From: an uncultured Pseudomonadales bacterium
GTDB lineage: Bacteria > Patescibacteriota > Microgenomatia > UBA1400 > MFAQ01
DNA length: 64,000 bases
Assembly (NCBI GenBank): GCA_964439805.1
Contig: CAYTOI010000002.1
Location: 47,489 to 111,488 of the forward strand
Direction of reading: 5' to 3'
Positions 2,887 to 52,416 of the stretch are shown here, piece by piece (the stretch's first letter is position 1; each line of letters begins with the position of its first letter). The translations under genes and the position numbers were made by a program. The notes below the pieces were generated by a model. That model was given only the letters and a program-made list of their open reading frames with translations, was not told the origin of the DNA and did no database searches.

Positions 2887-5800
2887 TTATAATTTTGTTT
2901 TAAATCCTTTTAGAAAATCGCTGGAGTCGTATTCCTCAAGAAGGGACTTGGGAAGTTTGCCTACTTTGGGAGCAATTATTTTTCTAGGAGCGGAAGCCTT
3001 AATGGGTGAGACTGAGATTTTTCTTATTGCGGGTGACTTGGTTCCAGAACTAACCTTCTTGCCTTTGGTTGCTGATATGACCTTGTTAAATGCTTTCTGT
3101 TGGTTCTCAGTGATAAAACCATCATCTAGCCACTTAGCTGTAACTCCTGTGGTTAAAACCTCGGACTCAGCAAGTTTATAAACTGTCTGGGCGTATTGTT
3201 GTTCTGTCATTCCTGAAAGGAAGTTCACCAAGTAGTTTCCACGACTGCCACTATCGACAGGAAGTGTCTTCATCATTTTCAAAGAACTTTCTTCGTAATT
3301 TGGCAAGCCTCTTTTTTGTAGAACTAACTCAATTTTGTCTTTAGATAGTCCAGACTGAAAAATTTGCTTTATTTCGTTAACTTGGTCTGAGACCTGTGTT
3401 TGTTTGTCCAAAGTGTCCAACAGTAAATCACCTCTTGAGGTACTAGTTTTTTTAGTTGTACCAAAAACTTTCTCCTTTAATAAATCGAAGAGGTTAAAAC
3501 TTTGCTGGCCAGAAATATCTTTTTTCAATGACTCCGCTTGTGTTCTGCCTTGTGTTGCTGTGGCATACGCGTCTTCTGGTTTTATTCCAGCGGAAACAAG
3601 TGACCTGTAAATGTCGGATTGGTTAACACCTAATGGATTTGGTTTATCAAAATACTTTTTGGCATTTTCTCCAACTGTAGGACCAAACATAATATCTTGC
3701 ACAGCGTTACCGCTCGGATACTTAAGGTTTCCTGTGGTTGGTGAGTACACTCCGCCTTGGAGCTGGCTTTGTAGGCCATTGTAGGACTTCAATATTTGGC
3801 CTCCTGCGGGGATGTATGACATTCCGCCTTTGAGAATGTCTTTTGGTCCATTTTCGTTACCTGTTGCTGTTTCAATAATTCCCTTTGGAAGTTGTAGGGT
3901 TGGTGGCGTTGTAGATATTCCAGAATTAAAAGGAATCATATTGTCCCACTCCATTCCTACAGCTTTTCCAATTGTTGAGGTGAACAATAAGGAAGCACCT
4001 ATATAGCGAAGTAGACCAGCAAAATCTTTTTGTACTACTTTGTTTCCTAAAAACTCCACTTGTTTGACCCCGAAAGACTGGAATTGTAAAAGTGTTTTTG
4101 CAATATCGCTTTGTAAAGCTACAGGTGTGTCTATGGCTCCAAAATTAAACTGTGTCTTGCGGACAATAGACTTGGCGAATTCAATAGCTTTTTCCTCACT
4201 TATTCCTTTATCTATCGCTTGAGCTTTCGCGCCCCAATAAGCGGCGCCTCTATTTACTTTCTCAGCTAGGTTAAACATGTAAAACAATCCGTCGTCCAGT
4301 TTTTGTAAAGTTTTACGAGTGGCGTTTAGGGTTCTATCTTCAATAAAAGAATTTTTAAGAACTCCAACTTTTTCCAGCTCACTATCGGCACCCGTGACAA
4401 AGTTCTTTAAGTTCTTGGCGACCTGGGTATAACCTTTGAGAGTGTATTTTTCTCCTAGTTCTGCGTAGGTATTGGCTCCTTGAGACAGGTTACGAAGGGC
4501 ACTCGCTGGATTCAAGCCAATTAAACCCTTGTAGACGGCTTGTCTAGCTTTTTGGGTAATAGCAGTCGTTGGTCTTTGACCAAATTTATAGCCAATAGGA
4601 CTACTTTTTATCGTGTTGTCCAAGAGGTTATCAATATCGGTAGGACGCATTTGGACACGGTCAATAAAATTCTTTACATAATTAAACTGTGAAGTTTCTA
4701 GGTCGTCGGCTACAGTTTTAACTTTCTCAAGTGCAGGGTCCATCCAATACTTACGGACTGCTCTTTTTGTATAAGCGTCCAAAGCCTGCCAAGTGTCTTG
4801 TATGTAACCTTCAGCGTCACCGCGTTTTTGGAGGAAAGGGTCATAAGTAGAGCCCGCAACCTTGTCACGAATTAACTTCGCAAATTCTGGGTCAAACTCT
4901 TGCTCTACTTCACCTCTCTTAAAAATATGGGTAATGTAGTTTGAGAGTCTTTTGTCTTTTGGAAGTTTTAACTTCTCAGCCCAATCGGAAAGATAACCCT
5001 TGATTTCAGTAGCCACTTTCAACTCTGTCTTATCCAAAAACTTCTCAGGCGCTTTACCGTCTAGGTACTGGAAAATAAGTTTATTGCTTTCTGGTGAGAC
5101 TTGTTTACTCCACTCTGTAATTTTGCTAATTTCCTTTGGAAGTTCATCCAAATATGTATCGTGTGCCAAGCGAATACTTTGAAACTCTGGCTTAAGTCCC
5201 ATTTTGCTAAACACAGTTGAGGGAGTGCGAAGGTAGTCCAATAAATTTACTTTTGACTTAACACTAAGTCCTGCCTCATCCGCAAACTTTGTCGCCATGT
5301 TCTCAATTGTTTTACCTTCTATTTTCGCCCAAGCTTTACTTGCTGGCATTTCTATCATTTCTTTTTCTGAAAATTTACCAGCTAAATAACTCAATCTCTT
5401 TTGAGGGTCTAAGCTTCTAAATGCTTTTTGTAACTTTGTAAATGGTCCAGCTTCACCCTCCAATTTACTTGCAAGTACTTGGGCGCCTTTCTTGATTAAG
5501 GGACTGGCTTTTGCACCAATATCCTCAATAGGGGCAGTCATACCCATAATCATTCCCGACATTCTGTTAAAGTCTTCTTTTTGTAAACTCTTTATATCTT
5601 GAGGTGTAGCTTTGTCATTGTAAAAATTTTCTGTAGCGGTTCTTGTCTCATCTGAAGGGCTCAACATGGTTTTAAATAGACCGCCAAAAACTGGTGTTTT
5701 GAAAATTGTGTTTTTTTTAAAATTCTCAATTGCTGGTGAGGCTTTAACTGGTGCACCATATAAACCAACCTTTCTAGCTTTTTCGGAATCTGAAATATAT

Positions 5801-6036
5801 TGGTCAAATTGTTGCTGTAAACCTTGGAAGGCTTTTGACAAATCGACTTTAAAAGTAGGCTTTTGGACTGTGTCCAAGTTTTTGACTATTTCACGAGTTG
5901 ATAAATTGCTTGGTCTGTAAGTAGATAACTCAGCGTTTAACTGGGCGTTTCTGTATGGGTCAATTGTTTTTTGTGGAGTGGGAGCGGGGTTTACGAACTC
6001 TTTGACCTTCTGGACGATGGCCTTAAAAATATTCAT
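2887..6036 (-). CDS. large hypothetical protein (1049 aa), element-encoded; possible virion/structural or DNA-delivery protein
   Basis: Uninterrupted 3.15-kb ORF, mostly soluble, Lys-rich C-terminal tail; start overlaps stop of upstream 405-aa gene (TAATG). No catalytic motif recognised by eye. Confidence 0.6.
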   Translation of the reverse strand: MNIFKAIVQKVKEFVNPAPTPQKTIDPYRNAQLNAELSTYRPSNLSTREIVKNLDTVQKPTFKVDLSKAFQGLQQQFDQYISDSEKARKVGLYGAPVKASPAIENFKKNTIFKTPVFGGLFKTMLSPSDETRTATENFYNDKATPQDIKSLQKEDFNRMSGMIMGMTAPIEDIGAKASPLIKKGAQVLASKLEGEAGPFTKLQKAFRSLDPQKRLSYLAGKFSEKEMIEMPASKAWAKIEGKTIENMATKFADEAGLSVKSKVNLLDYLRTPSTVFSKMGLKPEFQSIRLAHDTYLDELPKEISKITEWSKQVSPESNKLIFQYLDGKAPEKFLDKTELKVATEIKGYLSDWAEKLKLPKDKRLSNYITHIFKRGEVEQEFDPEFAKLIRDKVAGSTYDPFLQKRGDAEGYIQDTWQALDAYTKRAVRKYWMDPALEKVKTVADDLETSQFNYVKNFIDRVQMRPTDIDNLLDNTIKSSPIGYKFGQRPTTAITQKARQAVYKGLIGLNPASALRNLSQGANTYAELGEKYTLKGYTQVAKNLKNFVTGADSELEKVGVLKNSFIEDRTLNATRKTLQKLDDGLFYMFNLAEKVNRGAAYWGAKAQAIDKGISEEKAIEFAKSIVRKTQFNFGAIDTPVALQSDIAKTLLQFQSFGVKQVEFLGNKVVQKDFAGLLRYIGASLLFTSTIGKAVGMEWDNMIPFNSGISTTPPTLQLPKGIIETATGNENGPKDILKGGMSYIPAGGQILKSYNGLQSQLQGGVYSPTTGNLKYPSGNAVQDIMFGPTVGENAKKYFDKPNPLGVNQSDIYRSLVSAGIKPEDAYATATQGRTQAESLKKDISGQQSFNLFDLLKEKVFGTTKKTSTSRGDLLLDTLDKQTQVSDQVNEIKQIFQSGLSKDKIELVLQKRGLPNYEESSLKMMKTLPVDSGSRGNYLVNFLSGMTEQQYAQTVYKLAESEVLTTGVTAKWLDDGFITENQQKAFNKVISATKGKKVSSGTKSPAIRKISVSPIKASAPRKIIAPKVGKLPKSLLEEYDSSDFLKGFKTKL

Positions 6037-7253
6037 TATGCGAATATGTCAAATAATTCGGTGAAGGTGTTTCCTTGTAACTCACTGTCACTTAGTAGAG
6101 TGCTCTTGCTGTCATAAGTTGTTCTTGTTGGAACTTGTGAGCTTTGGGAAGGTGCTTGGTTGTCGTATCCTGAAAACTGGACGTTGTTTATTTTTGGAAC
6201 TGAGAGAACAGTTTCAGCATTTTTTGCTAGATTGTTTTGTAGTTGAGTCTTTACTTGCTCGCGCCACATGTTTAGTTCTAGTTCTGCGGCGTATTTTTGA
6301 TTTGCTAAAGCTTGACTGTCGGCAAGCTGTTGTCTAAGAACGTCTACTTTGGCCGCTTGTCTTGCTGACTCAGTTTCAAACTTCCTTGCTTGTATTTCTG
6401 CTCTTTTTTGGTCGTATAAAGAATTTATTTTTTTAAGTTCTGTGGCTTGTGCCTTTTGTAGCTCAAATTTTTTATCGTTTACAAATTTGTTTGCATTATC
6501 GAAGTATTGGAACGCTTGAGTTATTCCCTCCATCATTGTTTTACGAAGTCCACCAGTACCGCGAAGCGTCTCTTGTCCAAGTAAATCACTAACCGCGGCT
6601 CCTGTTGAGCTTCCACCTCCGAAGCGGTTCATTGCTCCTTGTTTTAAGGTGTTGTACTCGCGAATGGCGTTACTGTAAGCTGAAGAGTATTGGTCTTGTA
6701 GAGTTTGCTGTGCGTTGTCTCTATTTTGGGCGTACTGTCCCAAACTTCTATCAAGTTCGTTTTGCGCTGATATTGAAGCGTTGTTTGCTTCCTCAATTGC
6801 AATAGGGCGTTGCTTTTCTAGTTCACCAAGATAGTTATCGTATGTTTGATTTAAGGGAGCATAAATGGAATCAATTTCACCGTTTAAGTTATTACCAGAT
6901 GAATTGCCAAGTTCTGCTTCGTATCTAGCTCTTTGGCTTGGGTCGTTAAGAATATTGTTGATGGTGTTCTGGTCATTAAAACCAAACTTACTTCTTAACA
7001 AATCAGCAGTTAACCCTCCCGAAGATTGTTGGGGTTGTGGTGTTGGAGTTGAGCTATAAGTTTTTTGTACAGAATTAACAAGAGGTTTAATTGTTGTATT
7101 GTTTGGTTGAGTTATGGGAAGAGTGCTGTAGTCTGGTGGATTGTTAGTCACTGTTCTAGCGAATTCCGCTTGTCGAACCGTCGAAGAATTCATAATGGAA
7201 TCCCAAGTCTTTTGGAAAATGTTTCTTGTATCGGGCAGGATTGAATCTGGCAT
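6036..7253 (-). CDS. Q/N-rich coiled-coil protein (405 aa); scaffold/tape-measure-like
   Basis: Long predicted coiled-coil segments, low-complexity S/T/Q/N N-terminus; first gene of the operon. Confidence 0.55.
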   Translation of the reverse strand: MPDSILPDTRNIFQKTWDSIMNSSTVRQAEFARTVTNNPPDYSTLPITQPNNTTIKPLVNSVQKTYSSTPTPQPQQSSGGLTADLLRSKFGFNDQNTINNILNDPSQRARYEAELGNSSGNNLNGEIDSIYAPLNQTYDNYLGELEKQRPIAIEEANNASISAQNELDRSLGQYAQNRDNAQQTLQDQYSSAYSNAIREYNTLKQGAMNRFGGGSSTGAAVSDLLGQETLRGTGGLRKTMMEGITQAFQYFDNANKFVNDKKFELQKAQATELKKINSLYDQKRAEIQARKFETESARQAAKVDVLRQQLADSQALANQKYAAELELNMWREQVKTQLQNNLAKNAETVLSVPKINNVQFSGYDNQAPSQSSQVPTRTTYDSKSTLLSDSELQGNTFTELFDIFA

Positions 7254-14662: not shown

Positions 14663-16333
14663 ATGAAAAAAGCAGTAGCATACCTTCGTGTTAGTACTGA
14701 TAGCCAAAGCACTAGTTCTCAAAGGGACAAAATACAAGAATATGCCGTAGCAAATGGCTATGAAGTTGAGAAATGGTTTGAGGACTCTGCTCTTTCTGGA
14801 ACTCTAGACGATAGACCTCAACTCTTAGCTCTAAAAGAATGGGTACCAAACAATGAGGGCAAAAGTATTTTAATGGTTGGCCTCGATAGACTTGCGAGAG
14901 ACTTTGCAATATTTATCGACATGTCAACGCTTTTCAATAATTACAATGTAACCCCTGTTTACATAAATTGTCCAAGTAGTGGTGACGCAGTCATGGACAC
15001 TTTTCTCCAAAATATTCTAGCCTCTTTTGCTTCACTAGAAAAAGAACTCATTTCTCAAAGATTTAATAGAGGAAAACGATTTAAATTAAAAAATGGAATT
15101 ATTGCCGCTGGTGGTCCGCCATTGTTTGGGTATAAGTATCGGGTCGACTATTATCCTAGTGGTAAAAAAGATAAGTATTACGAAATAAACGAGGAGGAGG
15201 CGGAGACTGTTCGCCTCATGTTTAGAATGCTGTTATCTGAAAAGTACAAAGTTCAAGGAATTGGTAGAGAGTTAACTAGATTAAAAATCAGAACCCGCTC
15301 AGGGACTACCAGATGGGCGCCAAGCAGTACTCGAAGTCTGCTTTGTAACACAACATATATGGGTGATTACAGATACGGCAAAACTAAAATGCAAGGAGTT
15401 GGAAAAAATAGACACGAAGTCCCTCGAGCCATTGAAGAACAAATGGTTATTCCTGTACCTCCAATAATTACAAGAGAAGAATTTGCAAGAGCACAAGAAA
15501 TACTTGAGAGATTGGCGAGAGGTGCGGGTGGTCGCAAGCGACACAATGACACAGTTTTACTTTCAGGACTAATGATTTGCGGAAACTGTAACTATAGGTA
15601 TTCAGCAGGTGGACGAAGTACAGGGAAAAGGCTACATAGTTATTACAGGTGTAATTCTATAAACCGCTATAACGCAGACGGTGAACACCACTCCTGTGGT
15701 AACGCTACTTTGAAAACGGCCGAGGCGGATAGTGCAGTTTGGAACGCACTCGCGGATATACTTATAAACCCCGATAAGGTTAAAAACACCACAGACTCAA
15801 AAAGAAGAAAAGAGGAAATAGAGGGAATGTATGACGATATGATAAGTTTGGTTAAAAGACAGGAAAAAATTGCCGATGAGGAAAAAAGAATAATTGATGG
15901 TTATGCCAAGGGTTTGTTTGGAGATAGTCAAGTTAGGGAATACAGACAAGACTTAGCTGAGAAAAATAAAGAAATTGGCGATAAGTTACACGAAATAAAT
16001 TTACAAGTAAGCAACGCGTTGTGGGAGGATGGGGAGATAGATTTTGGCAAACCAAAAACTAGGAAGCAGGTCGACAAGTACACTTTTGATAAAAAGAGGG
16101 AGCTTATAAAAACCTACATTACAGAAGTTAGAGTTTTACCAACCGAACCAACCAAGTTAGAGATAGTTTTTAGGTTACCAATTGAGCCTAACAAGTCAGT
16201 TGTAACAATCAACGGCTCCCCGCGGGAAGTAGTACCTAGTTACAAAAATAATGGAAAAGTTGTAACAACTAATAACTCCCTCCAAATCCAGGCAAGATCA
16301 CTACCTTCTCCTTCTCGGGAGCAGGGCTTGTAA
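14663..16333 (+). CDS. large serine recombinase (phage-type integrase, 556 aa)
   Basis: N-terminal resolvase catalytic domain (AVAYLRVSTDSQ, ...GLDRLARD), recombinase domain, zinc-ribbon (CGNCNYRYSAGG...YYRCNS), coiled-coil region. Confidence 0.9.
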   Translation: MKKAVAYLRVSTDSQSTSSQRDKIQEYAVANGYEVEKWFEDSALSGTLDDRPQLLALKEWVPNNEGKSILMVGLDRLARDFAIFIDMSTLFNNYNVTPVYINCPSSGDAVMDTFLQNILASFASLEKELISQRFNRGKRFKLKNGIIAAGGPPLFGYKYRVDYYPSGKKDKYYEINEEEAETVRLMFRMLLSEKYKVQGIGRELTRLKIRTRSGTTRWAPSSTRSLLCNTTYMGDYRYGKTKMQGVGKNRHEVPRAIEEQMVIPVPPIITREEFARAQEILERLARGAGGRKRHNDTVLLSGLMICGNCNYRYSAGGRSTGKRLHSYYRCNSINRYNADGEHHSCGNATLKTAEADSAVWNALADILINPDKVKNTTDSKRRKEEIEGMYDDMISLVKRQEKIADEEKRIIDGYAKGLFGDSQVREYRQDLAEKNKEIGDKLHEINLQVSNALWEDGEIDFGKPKTRKQVDKYTFDKKRELIKTYITEVRVLPTEPTKLEIVFRLPIEPNKSVVTINGSPREVVPSYKNNGKVVTTNNSLQIQARSLPSPSREQGL

Positions 16334-42110: not shown

Positions 42111-42178
42111 TAAGGGTATTTTAACTGAAACTAGAGCCAAAGTGCTAAAATAGCGCATACTTTAAATTTGGAGGCTAG

Positions 42179-43743: not shown

Positions 43744-43773
43744 GCCAGCCTGCTGGGACGATTTTTGAACCTA
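43744..43773. repeat. tRNA-Asp 3'-end-derived repeat, copy 1 (AGCCAGCCTGCTGGGACGATTTTTGAACCT)
   Basis: Alignment by eye with reverse complement of tRNA-Asp 3' end GCGAGGCTGATGGGATTCGAACCC and with copies 3-5. Confidence 0.5.
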
Positions 43774-43932
43774 CTTAAACTCAATTAAACCTACTCTAAA
43801 TCTCTCTATCTAGGCACAAATAGCCCTATAGCATAGACTTTTGAACAAATTCTTGGTATAATTAAGCACAATTGATATTGATTTTATCAATCGACGTGCA
43901 CCTTAAATTTATTCCAGACTCAGGAGAAACCC

Positions 43933-44553
43933 ATGAAATACAGACCATTTAAACCGTTTTTTAGTTGGCTTTACGAGTTGTACATTATGATCAGTTTGAA
44001 AAATCAAGGTTACGGTGAAGAGCTGGCAAGATCCGTGATCGGCTATAGTCCAAAAGATGTCCCCTATGTATACAGCACGGATCCAAGCTATCCAAATAAC
44101 GGCACGCTTAAGTCCGAACTTTGGATGGGATCAGTAGTCAGTAAGGAAGAGCTGGTAGGAGTATGGTCCGATCAAATTCCTGAGGTTATTGTCCAATGGC
44201 GAGGTCACACTCCCATCAAAGGCAGTGTTTGTGGCAAGAGAGAGGTCAACAGACTAGAAGTTCACCACTTAGGTGACGGTTCATTTGTTCAGCTTGAATT
44301 TCGGAATGTATCTGATACGGGAGCTTTTGACGGCAAGCTTAAATATTTGGACCTGTACAAGCTTAAAGAGGAAACTAATTATTCTGGAAAGCTGTGCAAA
44401 GAATACTCTATTCACAAAATTCACCGAGTTGGTGTAAGGTGGGTGGTTGACTTGGGATTTTCCAGCTTCTCAGGCACGACCATGCTCAATGCATGGCAGG
44501 AAATTCTGCAATTTCGGGTGAACACATACATGATCAAGCCAGACATCAAATAA
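43933..44553 (+). CDS. hypothetical protein (206 aa), cassette gene
   Basis: AGGAGAAACCC-ATG RBS. Confidence 0.5.
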   Translation: MKYRPFKPFFSWLYELYIMISLKNQGYGEELARSVIGYSPKDVPYVYSTDPSYPNNGTLKSELWMGSVVSKEELVGVWSDQIPEVIVQWRGHTPIKGSVCGKREVNRLEVHHLGDGSFVQLEFRNVSDTGAFDGKLKYLDLYKLKEETNYSGKLCKEYSIHKIHRVGVRWVVDLGFSSFSGTTMLNAWQEILQFRVNTYMIKPDIK

Positions 44554-44556
44554 TTT

Positions 44557-44778
44557 ATGGACGAAAAAAGGAGACTAATGTCAGCAACAGAAGAGTTCAT
44601 TCGTGTTATGGGATTTATATTGGGGCCGATTTTAACTCCAATTGTGTTTGTAGGCTCTGGGGTTGCGTTTACGGCCGATCAACCAAATTACACCCACACA
44701 GTTGTATTGTTTCTGATGGGTGTAGCAATGCTGGTAATTACAATTATCAGCCATTATGATTTTTGGAAGAAAAAGTAA
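44557..44778 (+). CDS. small membrane protein (73 aa, 2 TM)
   Basis: Hydrophobicity; starts 3 nt after previous stop. Confidence 0.4.
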   Translation: MDEKRRLMSATEEFIRVMGFILGPILTPIVFVGSGVAFTADQPNYTHTVVLFLMGVAMLVITIISHYDFWKKK

Positions 44779-44950
44779 AAAGTAGTAATGTAAAGACCTC
44801 ATCTCTAAAGATGGGGTCTTTTTTTAGACCAAAAAGTACATATCTAGCCACAAACACCCCATAACTAGACAATATGCAGGTCTATAGGTATAATACGCAC
44901 ATAGGATTAGTTTCTACTATTACATTCACAAAATATTGGAAGGAGTAAAA

Positions 44951-45307
44951 ATGGATTTAGCATCCGTAAGTGTCATATTGAATATTGTTATGGCGGTGGT
45001 TTCTCTCTATTATCGGAACATAAGAAGTTTGGAAGTAAATATAGTAAAATTTTTACTGGCAACAGGTCTATTTTTTGTTGCAGCTTTTAGAGGAGAGATA
45101 TTTTTTGAGATTTTTTGGGGAATACTAATGATTGGATTTCTTTTTGTTATCACTGGTTATCCAGGTGAGTCGAGTACGGTGACAAAAATTGAAGTTCAGG
45201 ATCAGATTCAAAATTCCAATGAGCAAAGCACCTATCAGTGCACACACTGCCAAACTTTCTCGAAAGAAAGGATTGGTACTTGTAAGTCATGCGGTGCTCC
45301 TCTTTAA
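44951..45307 (+). CDS. membrane protein with C-terminal zinc ribbon (118 aa)
   Basis: AAGGAG 6 nt before ATG 44951; 3 TM; CTHC...CKSC. Confidence 0.5.
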   Translation: MDLASVSVILNIVMAVVSLYYRNIRSLEVNIVKFLLATGLFFVAAFRGEIFFEIFWGILMIGFLFVITGYPGESSTVTKIEVQDQIQNSNEQSTYQCTHCQTFSKERIGTCKSCGAPL

Positions 45308-45322
45308 AAAGAATTAAACTTG

Positions 45323-45349
45323 CCCTCTTAATAAAAAGAGGGTATTTTT
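45323..45349 (+). terminator. rho-independent terminator
   Basis: CCCTCTT-aataaa-AAGAGGG + TATTTTT. Confidence 0.6.
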
Positions 45350-45429
45350 GTGCCAAAAATGCATGTTTTCACCACCAGTACACATACGCTAGGGGTATAC
45401 TTAGGAATAAAAATTAAGACGAGTCTTAG

Positions 45430-45449
45430 TGGACGATATTCGAACCCAA
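45430..45449. repeat. tRNA-Asp T-arm-derived fragment, copy 2 (TGGACGATATTCGAACCCAA)
   Basis: Shares TTCGAACCCA with tRNA-Asp (reverse-complement sense). Confidence 0.35.
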
Positions 45450-45540
45450 ATATACTCAAAATAGGCACAAAATAAAGCCTATAGGTTGAAAAAACTTGAG
45501 AAAGATGATAAGATACTCAATCTCAAACTAAGGAGTTATC

Positions 45541-45840
45541 ATGCAAACATTTAAATATCCGTGGGAAGACTGGCTTACTGCATTGATGCTCAGTCTGCGT
45601 CCTCGCCTTTATATCTACCGCAAGGGTGAGTACAAGAAAGTGGTCGGTCCTGCTCCGTTACTCAACAGTCTCAAAGGAGTTGGCGGTTACTTGGTTATCG
45701 GTGACCAAATTCAGATCGTCTCAGGTCTATACTTCTCAGGAACAAACGCTCTAGGTTCCAACGCTGTGAACGGCTGGACAATCAACGAGATGGAGACGGA
45801 TGCACTTGACGATTCTGACAAAAAGAAATTAGGGCTCTAG
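45541..45840 (+). CDS. hypothetical protein (99 aa), cassette gene
   Basis: AAGGAG RBS. Confidence 0.5.
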   Translation: MQTFKYPWEDWLTALMLSLRPRLYIYRKGEYKKVVGPAPLLNSLKGVGGYLVIGDQIQIVSGLYFSGTNALGSNAVNGWTINEMETDALDDSDKKKLGL

Positions 45841-45953
45841 CCCCCAAACACAAAGAGAAAATCTCCAAGTGCGAGGGGGATTTTCTTTGCCAAAAAAGTT
45901 TGTATCCCATATTTGGCCACAAAAAATCCCTCCACAAGGGAAGGATTTTTCAT

Positions 45954-45987
45954 GGCGAGCCTACTGGGACGATTTTAGAACTTTTAA
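45954..45987. repeat. tRNA-Asp 3'-end-derived repeat, copy 3 (GGCGAGCCTACTGGGACGATTTTAGAACTTTT)
   Basis: Preceded by hairpin + GATTTTTCAT exactly as copy 1. Confidence 0.55.
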
Positions 45988-46045
45988 ACTGCGCAAATGA
46001 GTTATATCTATTTACCTAATATGGCTCTGCTGATACATTTAAGTC

Positions 46046-47959
46046 ATGGCAGAAGTTCAAATAAACCACGAGGTTGAAACAGTAGAGTCGAGGCTAACTA
46101 GCAAATGCATTGACAAATATCTTGATTTTGCGATGGACAATGAGGTCAAATTTCAACACAACAAGGAAGAAATTAAAACACAAGTTCAGGAAATAATAAC
46201 AAAATTTCAAGTTGAACCAGCATTTTTTCGCTCTGTTTTTGGACTTGCAAGACCCATGCTTCTTTTGGGGGTTGCTGATAGATGGATCTCAGCCAAGAAT
46301 TTAGATGAAAAGAAGTATTTGGTTGATTATATGAAGGTTCTTTTTTCAAATGACTTTATCCAAAATACTGATATTGGTCTTGAATTTGGAAAAACTTTCT
46401 CTATAAAAGAAGAAGAAAAAGCGATAATGGGTTATTCTGGTTCCTACGAGTTTGCTTCTGGCTTGTCGACAATAGAATCTGTAAATAGAGAGGGCTGGAG
46501 GAAAAAAAGAGATTTTGCAAACGACGACAACAATACTGACCTAGAAAAAACCGCCTCGCTGATTAACGGGATTAGTATTGATAACCCAGATTCCCAATTA
46601 AGCATTATTCGTAATGAACTCGGTATAACAAAAGAAAACGAACAAGAGTTTAAAGTTAAAGTTTCAAAACTTACAAAGTCAGAAATGGCAAAAAAATTTA
46701 ACGGAACAATTGCTTTCCAAGTTGGTAGCTTGGTATACCTTCCAAATAATTTCAATCAAAGCCTGTTGGAGCATGAATATACTCACTCTCAACAGCTAAA
46801 ATTTAGCTTCGGAGGTGGTCGAGTACTTGGCTCAGCTTTAGGGGAAGCTTTAACAGAATACCAAGTTCAGAAGCCAAAGTATTATGGTGAAGTTAGAAAG
46901 GTTCTTAAAGAGATCGAAAAGGTAATACCAGGATTTATAAATGAACTTAAAGAGTATGGGGTGGTAAAAATAATCTCAAAAGGTGACAAGGTAGTTATGA
47001 AAATGATGCAAGGGTTAGGTGCCTCAACAGCAATTGATGCACTAGCCCTGGCACCAGTTAGCTCAAAGTCTAATATGGCGCAAAACTACTTCCATGGTGG
47101 TAGTTTTTTTAGGAGACCGTATGATGTTTACAAGTCAGTCCACGCATTAGTAGGGAAACAAACTATTGAACAGAAAGATGTAGATTTTAAGGTATTTTCT
47201 TCTCTAGATGCTGAAATATCAAAAGAGACAGAAAGCAAAAGGTTGCAGGCTCATGAAATAGTTGAAAAGTTAAGCGAAATAACTGAATTTGATAAAGTTA
47301 GTATTCAACTTGAAAAGATTATCAGGTTATGGCGAGCAAATAGAGAGGTAACCTCATACGAGTTAAGGAGTTTTATAGAGCAAGTCAGTAAAAAATTCCC
47401 GAACGACTATGAGCAGGTCAGTGAGGTAATATCAAAAACCCTTCTAAGTGATGCTTCGGGCAATAAATACTACTTTGAATCATTTGTAAAAGATCCAAAT
47501 TTAAACCTTATGCTAATTTTGTTAAATAATGATGATCAAAAAAGTAACGAATTTGTTCGCAACTTATATACTGATTTATTAAGAAAATCTTCAACTAGTA
47601 ATAACAGCCAAATTATTGACTATGTCTCGTCACTCAGTAGTTTTTCCACTCCTGAATTTTTCGCAATACATGGTACTGAAGCAATTAATATGGCTTTAGA
47701 GACATCCAAATCAAATCCTGAAGATCGGTATGTGTATTTATCCTTCATTGAAGAAGTCCTAAAAAAGAATCTATTGGATAGTTTGAAAACAGAGGATAGG
47801 TCGGTGGCAATAGAAAAGCTGCAGTCCATATATAACAACATTGTAAAAACGCCAAGTGACATGTTCAAGAAATACACCAAGCCAGAAGAACTAGAAAAAA
47901 TACTCGTTTCAATAAAACAAAAAAAGAAAGAAGTATTACATCAAATGCTCAGTGAGTAG
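46046..47959 (+). CDS. large hypothetical protein (637 aa) with zincin-like HExxH..QQ motif (DUF4157-like)
   Basis: LEHEYTHSQQ at ~aa 250; otherwise no similarity recognised; sole gene of its cassette. Confidence 0.5.
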   Translation: MAEVQINHEVETVESRLTSKCIDKYLDFAMDNEVKFQHNKEEIKTQVQEIITKFQVEPAFFRSVFGLARPMLLLGVADRWISAKNLDEKKYLVDYMKVLFSNDFIQNTDIGLEFGKTFSIKEEEKAIMGYSGSYEFASGLSTIESVNREGWRKKRDFANDDNNTDLEKTASLINGISIDNPDSQLSIIRNELGITKENEQEFKVKVSKLTKSEMAKKFNGTIAFQVGSLVYLPNNFNQSLLEHEYTHSQQLKFSFGGGRVLGSALGEALTEYQVQKPKYYGEVRKVLKEIEKVIPGFINELKEYGVVKIISKGDKVVMKMMQGLGASTAIDALALAPVSSKSNMAQNYFHGGSFFRRPYDVYKSVHALVGKQTIEQKDVDFKVFSSLDAEISKETESKRLQAHEIVEKLSEITEFDKVSIQLEKIIRLWRANREVTSYELRSFIEQVSKKFPNDYEQVSEVISKTLLSDASGNKYYFESFVKDPNLNLMLILLNNDDQKSNEFVRNLYTDLLRKSSTSNNSQIIDYVSSLSSFSTPEFFAIHGTEAINMALETSKSNPEDRYVYLSFIEEVLKKNLLDSLKTEDRSVAIEKLQSIYNNIVKTPSDMFKKYTKPEELEKILVSIKQKKKEVLHQMLSE

Positions 47960-47991
47960 TCCCATTTTTACATATCTGGACATGACTCACC

Positions 47992-48090
47992 AGGCTCGTT
48001 ACGAGACTAGTTCCGGCAGTTCGAATCCCATACCAACAAACTAAAAATCTCGGCACAAGGCCGAGACTTTTACTTGCGAGCCTGATGGGA
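47992..48090. repeat. ~100-bp repeat X (inverted T-arm fragment GTTCGAATCCCATACCA + hairpin/terminator module + att copy); paralog of 49781-49880
   Basis: Direct comparison: ...GTTCGTTACGA(G/A)ACT...GTTCGAATCC(C/T)ATACCAA(C/T)AAACTAAAAATCTCGGCACAAGGCCGAGACTTTTACTTGCGAG(C/G)CTGATGGGA. Confidence 0.6.
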
Positions 48091-48108
48091 CAATTTTAGA
48101 ACTTTTCC
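48076..48108. repeat. tRNA-Asp 3'-end-derived repeat, copy 4 (GCGAGCCTGATGGGACAATTTTAGAACTTTTCC)
   Basis: 15/16 identity with tRNA-Asp acceptor/T-stem segment. Confidence 0.6.
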
Positions 48109-48173
48109 AGCGCAAAACTAACAATTTCGCCAACAAAAAAACTCGCCCATTGCTGAACGAGTCTGTGACACCA

Positions 48174-48485
48174 TTATTTCGTTTCAGTTACTTCTTTCGA
48201 AACCTGGATTTGATTTGAGTACACACGCCAAAGCGTGTATTTCTTCCCTTTGTACTCAACTGTTGATCCATAGTCAGAGTTCTTTACTGGTAATTCATCG
48301 TAGTTTTTGTATTCAAGGTTCCATGTCGTTCGGGTCCCACCAACAAAAACATCCCACGAATTGTCACCTTCGACAAGGACAATATTCTTTGGCGATTCCT
48401 GGTCGTTGCTATGCATAAAGAATGGAACCAGCAATAAAGCTACCAAAATAGTCCCGACACACAATTCGAAAAGTCCAATTTTCAT
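48174..48485 (-). CDS. hypothetical secreted/membrane-anchored protein (103 aa)
   Basis: AGGAGAG RBS before ATG 48485; N-terminal TM. Confidence 0.45.
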   Translation of the reverse strand: MKIGLFELCVGTILVALLLVPFFMHSNDQESPKNIVLVEGDNSWDVFVGGTRTTWNLEYKNYDELPVKNSDYGSTVEYKGKKYTLWRVYSNQIQVSKEVTETK

Positions 48486-48505
48486 AATCTCTCCTGTCAG
48501 TATTT

Positions 48506-48796
48506 TTACCAAAACTTGATGTGAAGTGAGACAATGAGCGCCCACAACCCAAGATTGATGATAGCGGGTCCAAATGGCTCAAAATATGCATCTACAAAGC
48601 CAACCCACTCGCCGAATGCCAGCTTGTTTGCCAGGGAAAACATTCCCCAGTTTACGGAAAACAAAAGGATTAGTACACATAGCAGTGATTTCAAAGTGTT
48701 TGGCATCGGTATCGGTGTAATCATTCCAACCGCCAAGCCGACAATTATGTCAAGTAAAGCCAGTACTATAAAGAACTTTTTCAAGGTAGCCTCCAA
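48506..48796 (-). CDS. membrane protein (96 aa, 3 TM), TTG start within repeat
   Basis: GGAGGCTACC-TTG shared with gene at 49615. Confidence 0.45.
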   Translation of the reverse strand: MEATLKKFFIVLALLDIIVGLAVGMITPIPMPNTLKSLLCVLILLFSVNWGMFSLANKLAFGEWVGFVDAYFEPFGPAIINLGLWALIVSLHIKFW

Positions 48797-48880
48797 GCTA
48801 ACGAAATTAGATTTGAATAGGGAATTCTAGCACAAAACCACCCAAAAATCAACTACTATAGGATCAATGCGAGCCTAATG
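48781..48880. repeat. ~100-bp promoter/RBS-bearing repeat, copy a (includes att copy 5 and minus-strand promoter TTGATT-17-TAGAAT)
   Basis: ~85% identical to 49611-49710. Confidence 0.6.
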
Positions 48881-48900
48881 GGACGGTTTTAGTACTTTCT
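48869..48900. repeat. tRNA-Asp 3'-end-derived repeat, copy 5 (GCGAGCCTAATGGGACGGTTTTAGTACTTTCT)
   Basis: As above. Confidence 0.55.
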
Positions 48901-48967
48901 CAGCACGAAATCTTAAAATTTAGCCAATAAAAAGCCCTGAACCAATTATGGTCCAGGGCTTGTTTTC

Positions 48968-49615
48968 CTACTTGTAATTTTCTTCGCTTTCCTGTGTCAA
49001 TAGTTCCGAGAACAACAGCATCTCAATCATTTCTGGATCAGGATCTACACGACACCAACGATCTAAGGTATAACGAACCACCTTTTTTGATACAACGGGC
49101 TTTCCAACCATTTCTGGGGAGCTACCAATTTCCCTGAAAACAAAAGTGGCGTTATCTCTCCACTCAGGATGAGGTTCATGTGCCCACTCAGGATGATCTA
49201 CAAACGGTTGAAGTGCTGGGTAATAAGGGGGAGAGGTCAACGCACGAGCCCTAGCTATTCCAATCACGAATACATCCCTGGAGATGTACAACCCATCTCT
49301 TACCTTTCGGCAGTTGTGGATGTTCATAAGGCGCTGTTCTTCAGAATCAAATACATACTCTACAGCAAATTTCTTTGATAGAAATGCCTTTGCAGAGTCC
49401 ATATTAAAGGGGATCGGGTAGAAGGAAATCAATAATTCCTGAGACAAATGGCGCCGAATTTTTGTCGTATCCATAAGAACCTCAGAATCATTTGTTAATG
49501 AGTATGCAACGGTAATTCCTCCAGACTTATCAGATAAAACGATGTCGGCCTCAAACATGCGGGCTAGATCAATATCTTCTCTGAGATCATTCGAACTTGC
49601 AATAAATATTTTCAA
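48968..49615 (-). CDS. hypothetical protein (215 aa), TTG start within repeat
   Basis: GGAGGCTACC-TTG; ORF only. Confidence 0.45.
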   Translation of the reverse strand: MKIFIASSNDLREDIDLARMFEADIVLSDKSGGITVAYSLTNDSEVLMDTTKIRRHLSQELLISFYPIPFNMDSAKAFLSKKFAVEYVFDSEEQRLMNIHNCRKVRDGLYISRDVFVIGIARARALTSPPYYPALQPFVDHPEWAHEPHPEWRDNATFVFREIGSSPEMVGKPVVSKKVVRYTLDRWCRVDPDPEMIEMLLFSELLTQESEENYK

Positions 49616-49710
49616 GGTAGCCTCCTAGCTAATGAATTTAGATTTGAATGTCCAATTTTAGCACAAAACCATCCAAAAATCAACTACTATAGGATCAATG
49701 CGAGGCTGAT
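49611..49710. repeat. ~100-bp promoter/RBS-bearing repeat, copy b (includes att copy 6 GCGAGGCTGATG and promoter TTGATT-17-TAAAAT)
   Basis: See copy a. Confidence 0.6.
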
Positions 49711-49780
49711 GCTTGTCCACCTGTGGCGGAGGAGGATTCACCTTCGGTCGAACTACGTTCGCCTCAGGACCGGTCTCAGC

Positions 49781-49880
49781 AGGTTCGTTACGAAACTGCT
49801 TCCGACTGTTCGAATCCTATACCAATAAACTAAAAATCTCGGCACAAGGCCGAGACTTTTACTTGCGAGGCTGATGGGAT
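49781..49880. repeat. ~100-bp repeat Y (paralog of 47992-48090) including minus-strand terminator hairpin 49836-49862 downstream of tRNA-Asp
   Basis: See X. Confidence 0.6.
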
Positions 49881-49939
49881 TCGAACCCACGACCTTCTCC
49901 GTGACAGGGAGACGCGCTAACCAACTGCGCTACAGCCCC
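49866..49939 (-). tRNA. tRNA-Asp (anticodon GTC)
   Basis: Hand-folded: acceptor GGGGCTG/CAGCCTC, D GCGC/GCGC loop AGTTGGTTA, anticodon stem TCTCC/GGAGA loop CTGTCAC, T GTGGG/CCCAT loop TTCGAAT. Confidence 0.85.
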
Positions 49940-50095
49940 AACAAGCTATATTCTAAGGCCAAAAGACCATATTTGCCATACTAAAATGCGTATTGGCACA
50001 ATTTCTGTTAAAATACCCTTAGTTAAATCATCTTAACTTTTTAATTTGGTTCCCTGGTGATGATGGCCATGGGGTAAGCAAGAAAGGAGCCAGAA

Positions 50096-50740: not shown

Positions 50741-52090
50741 ATGATCAGTTTAAAAATTAGTAAGCTCCAAAAAAGCTACAACCAACCACTTTTGGACGAT
50801 ATTACCTTTAACCACGTAGGAGAAGGTGTGGTGGCACTAATTGGTGATAACGGCTGCGGCAAATCAACTTTGTTAAAGATTTTAGCTGGGTTAGATCAGC
50901 AAGATGGGGGAAAGTTTGAGTGGGGAGGAACCCTAAGAATTGGTTACTTGACACAAGAGATTGAAAGTTTACCTACTCTTTCTGGAGGCCAAAAGAAAAT
51001 TAGTTTGCTTGCCGATCTCTTTTATTCTGGCGAATACGACGTGTTACTTCTCGATGAACCAGACAATCATCTGGATATCCAAAACAAACAGTGGCTCGCC
51101 TCAGCTATTAAGGATTTTGGTGGTCTGGTAATAATGATTTCGCACGACCGACATTTGTTGAAACAAATTTCAAACTATACCTGGCTAGTAGAGGATAGAG
51201 AAGTTCGCACCTATCCCTTTGGCTACGGCAAGTTTGTAGTTGAATATCAAAAAGAAACCGAGAGCATGGAAAAGCTTTTTAGTGTTCAAGAAAAAGAACA
51301 CAAGAGACTGGCGGCTCTTGTAGATGTTTTTCGCCAAAGAGCAGCCAGTGGTCCCAAGGCTGCCAGATACTTTCACGCTCTGGAAAAGCGCTTGGCCAGA
51401 TTTGAAGCCGAAATGGTGAACGACCCCAAGAAGAAAGATGTCAAAATTCTTCTCAATACCAAAACTTCTAGCAAGCAAATAAAAAACAAGCTTTCTGTGT
51501 TGGTCAGAAACTTAAGCTTTTCTTATGGAGAAACAGAAATCTTCAAAGACGCCGACTTTTTTATGGAAGTAGGGGATAAGGTAGCACTTGTTTCACCCAA
51601 TGGCACTGGAAAATCTACTTTAATAAAACTAATTTTAGGATTTCTCAGCCCTGATCAGGGTACAGCAAGAGTCGGCGAAAATCTTAAAGTTGGTTATTAC
51701 TCTCAAGAACACTTGGAAACACTTCCTGCAGAAGGCACTCCAATATCTGTCTTTACTAGCCGCTTCCCCATAGCCGACTACGATGCTGCTGCAGTTTTGA
51801 AAAAGTTTTATTTCAGCAAGCAAACAATAAAGTCAAAAATTTGGACGCTCTCTGGTGGCCAAAAAGCAAGATTGCAATTGGCTCTTTTTCTCTATACCAA
51901 CCCCGACGTTTTAATTTTGGACGAGCCAACTAACCATTTGGACATTCGTTCCGTTACTGCCCTGGAGGAATTTTTGGTGGACTACGCGGGCTCCATTTTG
52001 CTCATTTCTCACGACCACGATCTCCTAAACACTGTTTGCGACGTGGCCTACGCTGTAAAAAATCAAAAAATCACCCTAACTGAAATTTAG
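50741..52090 (+). CDS. ABC-F-type ATPase (two tandem nucleotide-binding domains, no membrane domain); first NBD shortened
   Basis: Walker A GDNGCGKST and SPNGTGKST, signatures LSGGQKKI and LSGGQKARL, Walker B LLLDEP and LILDEP. Confidence 0.75.
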   Translation: MISLKISKLQKSYNQPLLDDITFNHVGEGVVALIGDNGCGKSTLLKILAGLDQQDGGKFEWGGTLRIGYLTQEIESLPTLSGGQKKISLLADLFYSGEYDVLLLDEPDNHLDIQNKQWLASAIKDFGGLVIMISHDRHLLKQISNYTWLVEDREVRTYPFGYGKFVVEYQKETESMEKLFSVQEKEHKRLAALVDVFRQRAASGPKAARYFHALEKRLARFEAEMVNDPKKKDVKILLNTKTSSKQIKNKLSVLVRNLSFSYGETEIFKDADFFMEVGDKVALVSPNGTGKSTLIKLILGFLSPDQGTARVGENLKVGYYSQEHLETLPAEGTPISVFTSRFPIADYDAAAVLKKFYFSKQTIKSKIWTLSGGQKARLQLALFLYTNPDVLILDEPTNHLDIRSVTALEEFLVDYAGSILLISHDHDLLNTVCDVAYAVKNQKITLTEI

Positions 52091-52107
52091 TCTGATAAAA
52101 TTGGTCT

Positions 52108-52416
52108 GTGTCCAAAGTAATCGTCACTGCAGATGAGGTCAAAAAAATAGCCAAGCTGGCTAGCCTTACCCTGCAAAACAACCAAGAGGATCTCTTTGCT
52201 GAGCAGTTCACCGACACCCTCGAAGTAGTCAAAAAACTAGATCAGCTCGACACTACAGTAGTTACCGGCACTTACCAAGTAAACTCCTTGCAAAACGTTA
52301 CCCGAGAAGATGTTGTCGACTCAGAAAGAATTCTTCCCCAATCAGTAGCCATAAGAGAGGCAAAAATTACCTACAATGGTTATTTTGTCGTTCCTCGCCT
52401 TATCGATAACTCATGA
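52108..52416 (+). CDS. gatC: Asp/Glu-tRNA amidotransferase subunit C (GTG start)
   Basis: Position before gatA/gatB, size, ...VKKIAKLASL...; GTG at 52108. Confidence 0.75.
   Translation: MSKVIVTADEVKKIAKLASLTLQNNQEDLFAEQFTDTLEVVKKLDQLDTTVVTGTYQVNSLQNVTREDVVDSERILPQSVAIREAKITYNGYFVVPRLIDNS

Follow-up and report, generated by a model that had tools for sequence, protein, structure and literature searches.

The locus analyzed here raises two questions: what kind of protein is encoded by a long gene that stands alone between two short repeats, and by what route did that gene arrive where it is found? The gene is a 637-amino-acid (aa) open reading frame (ORF) in a 64,000-nt stretch of contig CAYTOI010000002.1 (assembly GCA_964439805.1), hereafter the window. 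We consider it probable (roughly 0.6) that the ORF encodes a soluble zinc metallopeptidase, a thermolysin-like gluzincin belonging to a small uncatalogued family, and that it is carried as strain-specific cargo of an array linked to a tRNA-Asp gene. The initial annotation had singled out the string LEHEYTHSQQ, which occupies aa 241-250 and contains H243, E244 and H247. Both the frame and the string proved to be real: the frame starts with ATG, its exact product is already recorded from an NCBI assembly (P0001, in a 124,889-bp contig), and its HExxH is found without exception in the 54 family members, while the composition of the protein predicts 0.012 HExxH motifs by chance. The parts of the gene to which we refer below are as follows.

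46046..47959, + strand: 637-aa ORF with an ATG start, stop codon included in the span; belongs, as a long form, to an uncatalogued HExxH-x19-ExxxE family
46082..46570, + strand: N-terminal all-helical domain, aa 13-175, in the AlphaFold2 model; common to the short (~330-410 aa) members
46571..47161, + strand: predicted gluzincin catalytic core, aa 176-372
46772..46786, + strand: H243-E244-Y245-T246-H247, proposed to supply two zinc ligands and the general-base Glu; HExxH invariant in 54/54
46790-46792, + strand: invariant Q249, after the HExxH
46844..46858, + strand: E267-A-L-T-E271, a proposed third zinc ligand (invariant) followed by a proposed His-orienting acidic residue
47186..47956, + strand: C-terminal alpha-solenoid, aa 381-637; long subfamily only, poorly conserved

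Among 5.8 billion proteins, a word-indexed search returned the protein itself and a single relative with 33% identity over aa 26-385. When 1.84 billion cluster representatives were searched exhaustively with HMMER, 54 proteins were obtained at E<=1e-3, and profile searching of the 5.8-billion-protein set contributed further unannotated members only, with no bridge to any Pfam family. The long-form group consists of the query and seven others, six of them full length (646-671 aa) and one a 310-aa fragment, while about 45 members are short (~330-410 aa) and span only query aa ~20-360. All ten clusters that were looked up contain one or two sequences, and the few bearing names are called "hypothetical protein". 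No second member was found in the window, and none was found in the 2.9 million viral contigs scanned for relatives. Scans of the query and all 54 members against Pfam, NCBIfam, PHROGs and PADLOC revealed no meaningful family, and PDB sequences gave no match either, which bears out the earlier view that the remainder of the protein is novel at the sequence level. Thus, judged by sequence comparison, the gene belongs to a small family that is undescribed in any curated library.

Despite a mean column identity of 14% across the 54-sequence alignment, five residues (H243, E244, H247, Q249 and E267) are invariant in all 54 members, and five others (R189, Y245, E271, P277 and Y280) reach a conservation of 90% or more. 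The HExxH is therefore kept throughout the homologs, and the loss of the motif among them that would have refuted the initial annotation is not seen. The spacing between the second His and the invariant Glu equals 19 residues in 41 of the 54 members, and the position of E271, four residues past E267, is occupied by E or D in 53 of 54. The second Q of the "QQ" is present in only eight. A hydrophobic N-terminus is missing in 53 of 54 members, and the 637-aa protein has no signal peptide. Conservation is distributed unevenly along the long forms, with a mean identity of 42% in the core, 32% in the N-terminal domain and 16.7% in the C-terminal domain.

The full-length AlphaFold2 model, computed with the 54-sequence alignment as input, reached a mean predicted local distance difference test score (pLDDT) of 86.5 and a predicted template modeling score (pTM) of 0.80, with values of 92.3 and 0.87, respectively, for the core. 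In the model, the core comprises a three-stranded sheet (E203-207, E224-226 and E229-232), the HExxH-bearing helix 238-249, a Glu-bearing helix 263-272 and a helical subdomain, and the C-terminal half can be likened to HEAT/ARM-type repeats. Gluzincins (MEROPS clan MA(E)) are defined by a conserved HExxH and a Glu on the following helix, and both are found here, the latter on helix 263-272. The predicted fold of the catalytic domain is thus that of a zincin, specifically a gluzincin. The zincin assignment made in the initial annotation therefore stands as far as the predicted core fold is concerned, while the match to a curated hidden Markov model (HMM) that it implied was not obtained. The relevant thermolysin segment (HELTH-x19-E166xxxD170) was verified against PDB chains: thermolysin H142ELTH146-x19-E166-x3-D170 has the same spacing as the HExxH-x19-ExxxE of the family, and hhalign placed both motifs in register with thermolysin.

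These data make it possible to propose how the enzyme would work. H243 and H247 share a helix and, together with E267 on the following one, would bind Zn2+, E244 would activate a water molecule, and E271, as the counterpart of thermolysin D170, would orient a His ligand. The strand bearing A223-F224 may serve as the edge strand on which the substrate docks, and the active site is predicted to be lined by the invariant Q249 together with the near-invariant R189, Y245 and Y280. The protein substrate may be restricted or selected by the helical domain at the N-terminus, which is conserved, and, in the long forms, also by the fast-diverging C-terminal alpha-solenoid. The most probable role, which we put forward as speculative, would be the cleavage of a specific protein in a genetic or cellular conflict, for example in phage defense or in the manipulation of a host cell.

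Among the established families of MEROPS clan MA, subclan E, the M1 aminopeptidases/LTA4 hydrolase, the M9 collagenases, M61 and M4 thermolysin likewise combine an HExxH helix with a Glu ligand on the next helix, although none of their family HMMs matches the 637-aa family. The spacing and the ExxxD/E motif of thermolysin are identical to those found here, but M4 and M9 enzymes possess a signal peptide or propeptide, which the 637-aa family lacks. M1 enzymes resemble the 637-aa protein in having a helical repeat domain after the catalytic domain; however, their GxMEN motif occurs in 0 of 54 family members, and they begin with a beta-sandwich instead of a helical domain. A Gln at His+2 and a P277-x2-Y280-x3-R284 motif are specific to the 637-aa family and distinguish it from the thermolysin-like gluzincins. 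Membership in M1 or M4 was rejected, the likeness being one of fold and motif alone, with no Pfam match. The enzyme class itself is ordinary, and the array that carries the gene is the more unusual object.

Several observations weigh against the gluzincin interpretation or against the role attached to it. With the protein and the family profile as queries, neither the curated HMMs nor the PDB sequences gave a single sequence-level match, and hhalign against the single 40-residue thermolysin segment reached a probability of only 6.6%. A Foldseek search against the PDB, with no significant match, was uninformative in this respect. Nothing in the data points to a substrate, to a route of secretion or to a partner protein, and the sole basis of the proposed conflict role is the location of the gene in a variable region. 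Finally, the 64 nt that separate the upstream junction from the ATG (45982-46045) contain neither a Shine-Dalgarno sequence nor a consensus sigma-70 promoter, unlike the neighboring cassette genes, which display clear AGGAG-type sites.

The second question concerns the origin of the gene, and the features on which the answer depends are the following.

45955..45981, + strand: upstream junction GCGAGCCTACTGGGACGATTTTAGAAC, the first 15 nt of which match the tRNA-Asp 3' end at 13/15 positions (two mismatches)
48076..48102, + strand: downstream junction GCGAGCCTGATGGGACAATTTTAGAAC, a 27-nt repeat
43744-43770 and 48869-48895: further copies of the junction, with a 12-nt partial copy at 49700-49711
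49865..49939, - strand: tRNA-Asp(GTC), which anchors the repeat array
47975..48075, no strand assigned: copy of the sequence just 3' of tRNA-Asp, 88% over the 116-nt direct repeat 47975-48090 versus 49764-49879

The 27-nt repeat occurs in four copies in the window, against an expectation of 0.00. The 15-nt 3' end of tRNA-Asp (49865-49879, read on the + strand) has five matches in the window including the tRNA itself, against 0.03 expected, and recurs at 43744, 45955, 48076 and 48869. The 637-aa gene is the sole gene between 45955 and 48076, the other ORFs of the unit all being antisense within the large one; the description of the gene as the only one in its cassette, flanked by two 27-nt repeats, is thus accurate. 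Equally accurate is its placement next to a tRNA, given that tRNA-Asp anchors the array 1.9 kb downstream. The array, which spans 43744-49879 in the window and 3066-6365 in the sister contig L019, is composed of units of 0.14-2.2 kb with zero to four genes (0.17-2.2 kb between the junctions of the window), parted by the 27-nt GCGAGSCTNNTGGGAYRRTTTYNGWAC, the first 15 nt of which are those of the tRNA 3' end.

The sister contig L019 is 85-87% identical to the window across the flanking RRM-to-GatA genes and ~77% identical across the LysM flank. At the same locus, it contains the junction motif five times together with the tRNA, but its cargo genes are different and no member of the family is among them. 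Because the same junctions carry other genes there, the 637-aa gene is confirmed as a strain-specific accessory cargo of a tRNA-linked array, in agreement with the proposal that it was acquired as a discrete cassette. We suggest that it would have been gained as accessory DNA by site-specific integration, in a Microgenomates-type bacterium of the candidate phyla radiation. In line with such a lineage, the neighboring RRM protein, which is one small, conserved protein, clusters at an identity of at least 90% with proteins of Candidatus Collierbacteria and Woesebacteria.

Accretions of cis-mobilizable elements and the ssrA islands of Dehalococcoides are known cases of tandem integrative elements that target tRNA sites. 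As in such tandem elements, the content of the array differs between close strains, but the four junctions described here have 12 further bases in common that are missing from the tRNA. The tycheposon islands of Prochlorococcus, in which newer elements push older ones inward (bioRxiv 10.1101/2020.12.28.424599), resemble the array in that their units are parted by partial tRNA 3' ends and stacked by an intact tRNA; they differ in that the units of the present array are very small and none carries an integrase. No recombinase domain was detected in any ORF of the array. As regards integron features, no tyrosine recombinase was noticed in the vicinity of the array, and the junctions are tRNA-derived direct repeats with no recognizable attC, as judged without folding. 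The 27-nt junction motif had 0 matches in the scans of viral and metagenome contigs. No att-type repeats were found around the homologs that lie near tRNA genes in two other loci (L002 and L008); therefore, the proximity of a tRNA elsewhere is no evidence of the same mechanism.

Several further observations were made on the array and its surroundings. A single recombinase was noticed in the window, a large serine recombinase of 556 aa (14663-16333, + strand) with Resolvase, Recombinase and Zn_ribbon_recom domains, which is situated ~30 kb from the array. Within the 116-nt repeat copy, 83 nt past the stop codon of the 637-aa ORF, there is a two-way terminator-like hairpin (48042-48072). On the + strand, the 116-nt repeat (47975-48090 and 49764-49879) contains a T-loop-like string (GTTCGAATCC...ACCA); ARAGORN and Rfam found nothing there, and none of the repeats was assigned to an RNA family by Rfam. 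A 103-nt segment resembling a promoter and 5' leader (48778-48880 and 49609-49711, 89%) precedes two unrelated minus-strand ORFs of 96 and 215 aa, both of which abut a junction, and is 95% identical to positions 3782-3888 of L019. This identity with the sister contig suggests that the segment may be a portable module for expressing the units. An inverted repeat of 20 nt (95% complementary), with one arm right upstream of tRNA-Thr (42111-42130) and the other ~60 nt upstream of tRNA-Asp (50002-50021), encloses the LysM gene, the array and all that lies between them. In a neighboring unit, a 119-aa membrane protein (44948-45304, + strand) with a C-terminal zinc-ribbon-like CxxC...CxxC matches phrog_8436 (function unknown, E=4e-5), which is the only match to a phage family in the array.

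Another variable spot is found between the ABC-F gene and gatC. In the window it is empty (52090-52108, 17 nt), whereas L018 (2982-3552) has an insert of 0.57 kb there with an ORF of 125 aa, and L019 (8578-9793) one of 1.2 kb with two ORFs; at the breakpoint, there is a 10-nt overlap of the blastn blocks. Elsewhere in the window, two adjacent minus-strand ORFs of 1049 and 405 aa (2887-7253) have no Pfam match at E<=1e-5.

What conflict, if any, would such an enzyme serve? One explanation is that it is a secreted or injected effector with which an episymbiont modifies its host cell, the variable alpha-solenoid targeting a host protein. Effectors commonly combine a protease with a helical repeat domain, the gene is strain-specific, and its C-terminal repeat domain diverges rapidly. 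The lineage is also likely to belong to the candidate phyla radiation, whose members are generally considered host-dependent (see PMC12102498). However, the absence of a signal peptide fits this explanation poorly, as does the lack of recognized secretion-system genes in the scanned parts of the window and in the homologous loci. Moreover, the C-terminal domain is missing from most family members, and among the matches listed, at least one long-form homolog comes from a metagenome-assembled genome labeled Pseudomonadales, which indicates that the family is not tied to episymbionts. We therefore regard an effector role as unlikely.

The same absence of a signal peptide favors another explanation, namely an intracellular protease of defense or abortive infection that cuts a cellular or phage protein upon infection, in the manner of Lit, the abortive-infection protease that cleaves EF-Tu. 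The gene forms a single-gene unit within a hypervariable island, and long-form homologs adjoin a type II restriction-modification pair (L004, L005) and a BrnT/BrnA toxin-antitoxin pair with an HTH_17 gene and a transposase (L001). Yet the association with defense genes is seen in two independent loci only, the homologs at the other loci being located among ordinary housekeeping genes; PADLOC returned nothing, and there is no Pfam similarity to Peptidase_U49 (Lit). A dedicated defense role thus also seems doubtful.

It is distinctly less plausible that the motif and fold have been kept in a protein that is no longer a peptidase or has no part in conflict, such as a metal-binding scaffold, a hydrolase acting on another kind of substrate or an ordinary housekeeping oligopeptidase. 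The combination of HExxH and a downstream Glu is a signature of peptidases, unlike the H-x3-H-x5-H of YbeY, and the invariance of five catalytic-type residues in very divergent sequences argues for retained catalysis. A housekeeping function, for its part, is at odds with the patchy, singleton distribution of the family and its absence from the sister strain.

The initial annotation had assigned the motif to DUF4157 (PF13699), a zincin domain that would mark a toxin of the contractile-injection-system or polymorphic type with an immunity gene nearby. The 637-aa protein does contain an HExxH followed by QQ, and hhalign does pair the strand-strand-HExxH segments over 40 columns, which leaves room for a very remote common zincin ancestor; in both groups, a strand-helix-strand-strand unit precedes the HExxH, and a Gln follows it shortly. 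DUF4157 proteins are, in addition, associated with conflict, the domain being a core component of extracellular contractile injection systems (eCIS), where it is called "PVC-metallopeptidase", or a toxin marker usually located N-terminal to the toxin domain (PMC8213781). For comparison, a reference set was obtained with a consensus-like probe that retrieved 265 proteins; PF13699 was precomputed in 120 of the 120 listed, and 40 were aligned. The probability given by hhalign for the 54-sequence family profile against these 40 proteins was 3.3%. No match to PF13699 was found for the query (E<=10), for the core fragment and nine relatives (E<=10) or for any of the 54 members (E<=0.1). The register of the Gln residues is also off by one: in the HELxHxxQQ signature of DUF4157 they lie at His+3 and His+4 (Q92 and Q93 after H89 in the 40-protein alignment), whereas the invariant Gln of the 637-aa family lies at His+2.

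The architecture and the surroundings differ as well. The conserved downstream ExxxE helix is a property of the 637-aa family, and the eCIS context is a property of DUF4157. In the AlphaFold2 model, the catalytic core occupies the middle of the protein and does not precede a toxin domain, the C-terminus being a helical repeat. Sheath, tube, baseplate and phage-tail domains were all lacking in the five neighborhoods for which gene lists were available, and relatives in viral contigs were lacking too, which leaves the supposed polymorphic-toxin or phage-like setting without a counterpart in the data. An all-against-all comparison of ORFs from 17 loci and the window detected no neighbor family, and hence no small immunity-like neighbor, common to independent loci. 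The protein is not a member of DUF4157, and a toxin of this kind, being largely refuted, is very improbable here.

A bolder interpretation combines the gluzincin reading with the peculiarities of the array. The protein, with its succession of helical domain, core and alpha-solenoid, might represent a new gluzincin family at the MEROPS level, a protease of conflict or host interaction in bacteria of the candidate phyla radiation that is exchanged between strains as a one-gene unit of an integrase-less array anchored at tRNA-Asp, the array itself being an integron-like gene-capture locus built on tRNA-derived sites. As a whole, this combination is tentative and would have to be called a long shot.

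The genomes of the candidate phyla radiation are rich in unannotated genes, and little is known of how these bacteria handle their hosts and phages. In this setting, the present analysis removes a wrong link to contractile-injection-system toxins and, if the gluzincin reading is correct, would provide about 54 orphan protein clusters with a testable label, that of a zinc peptidase with named catalytic residues.
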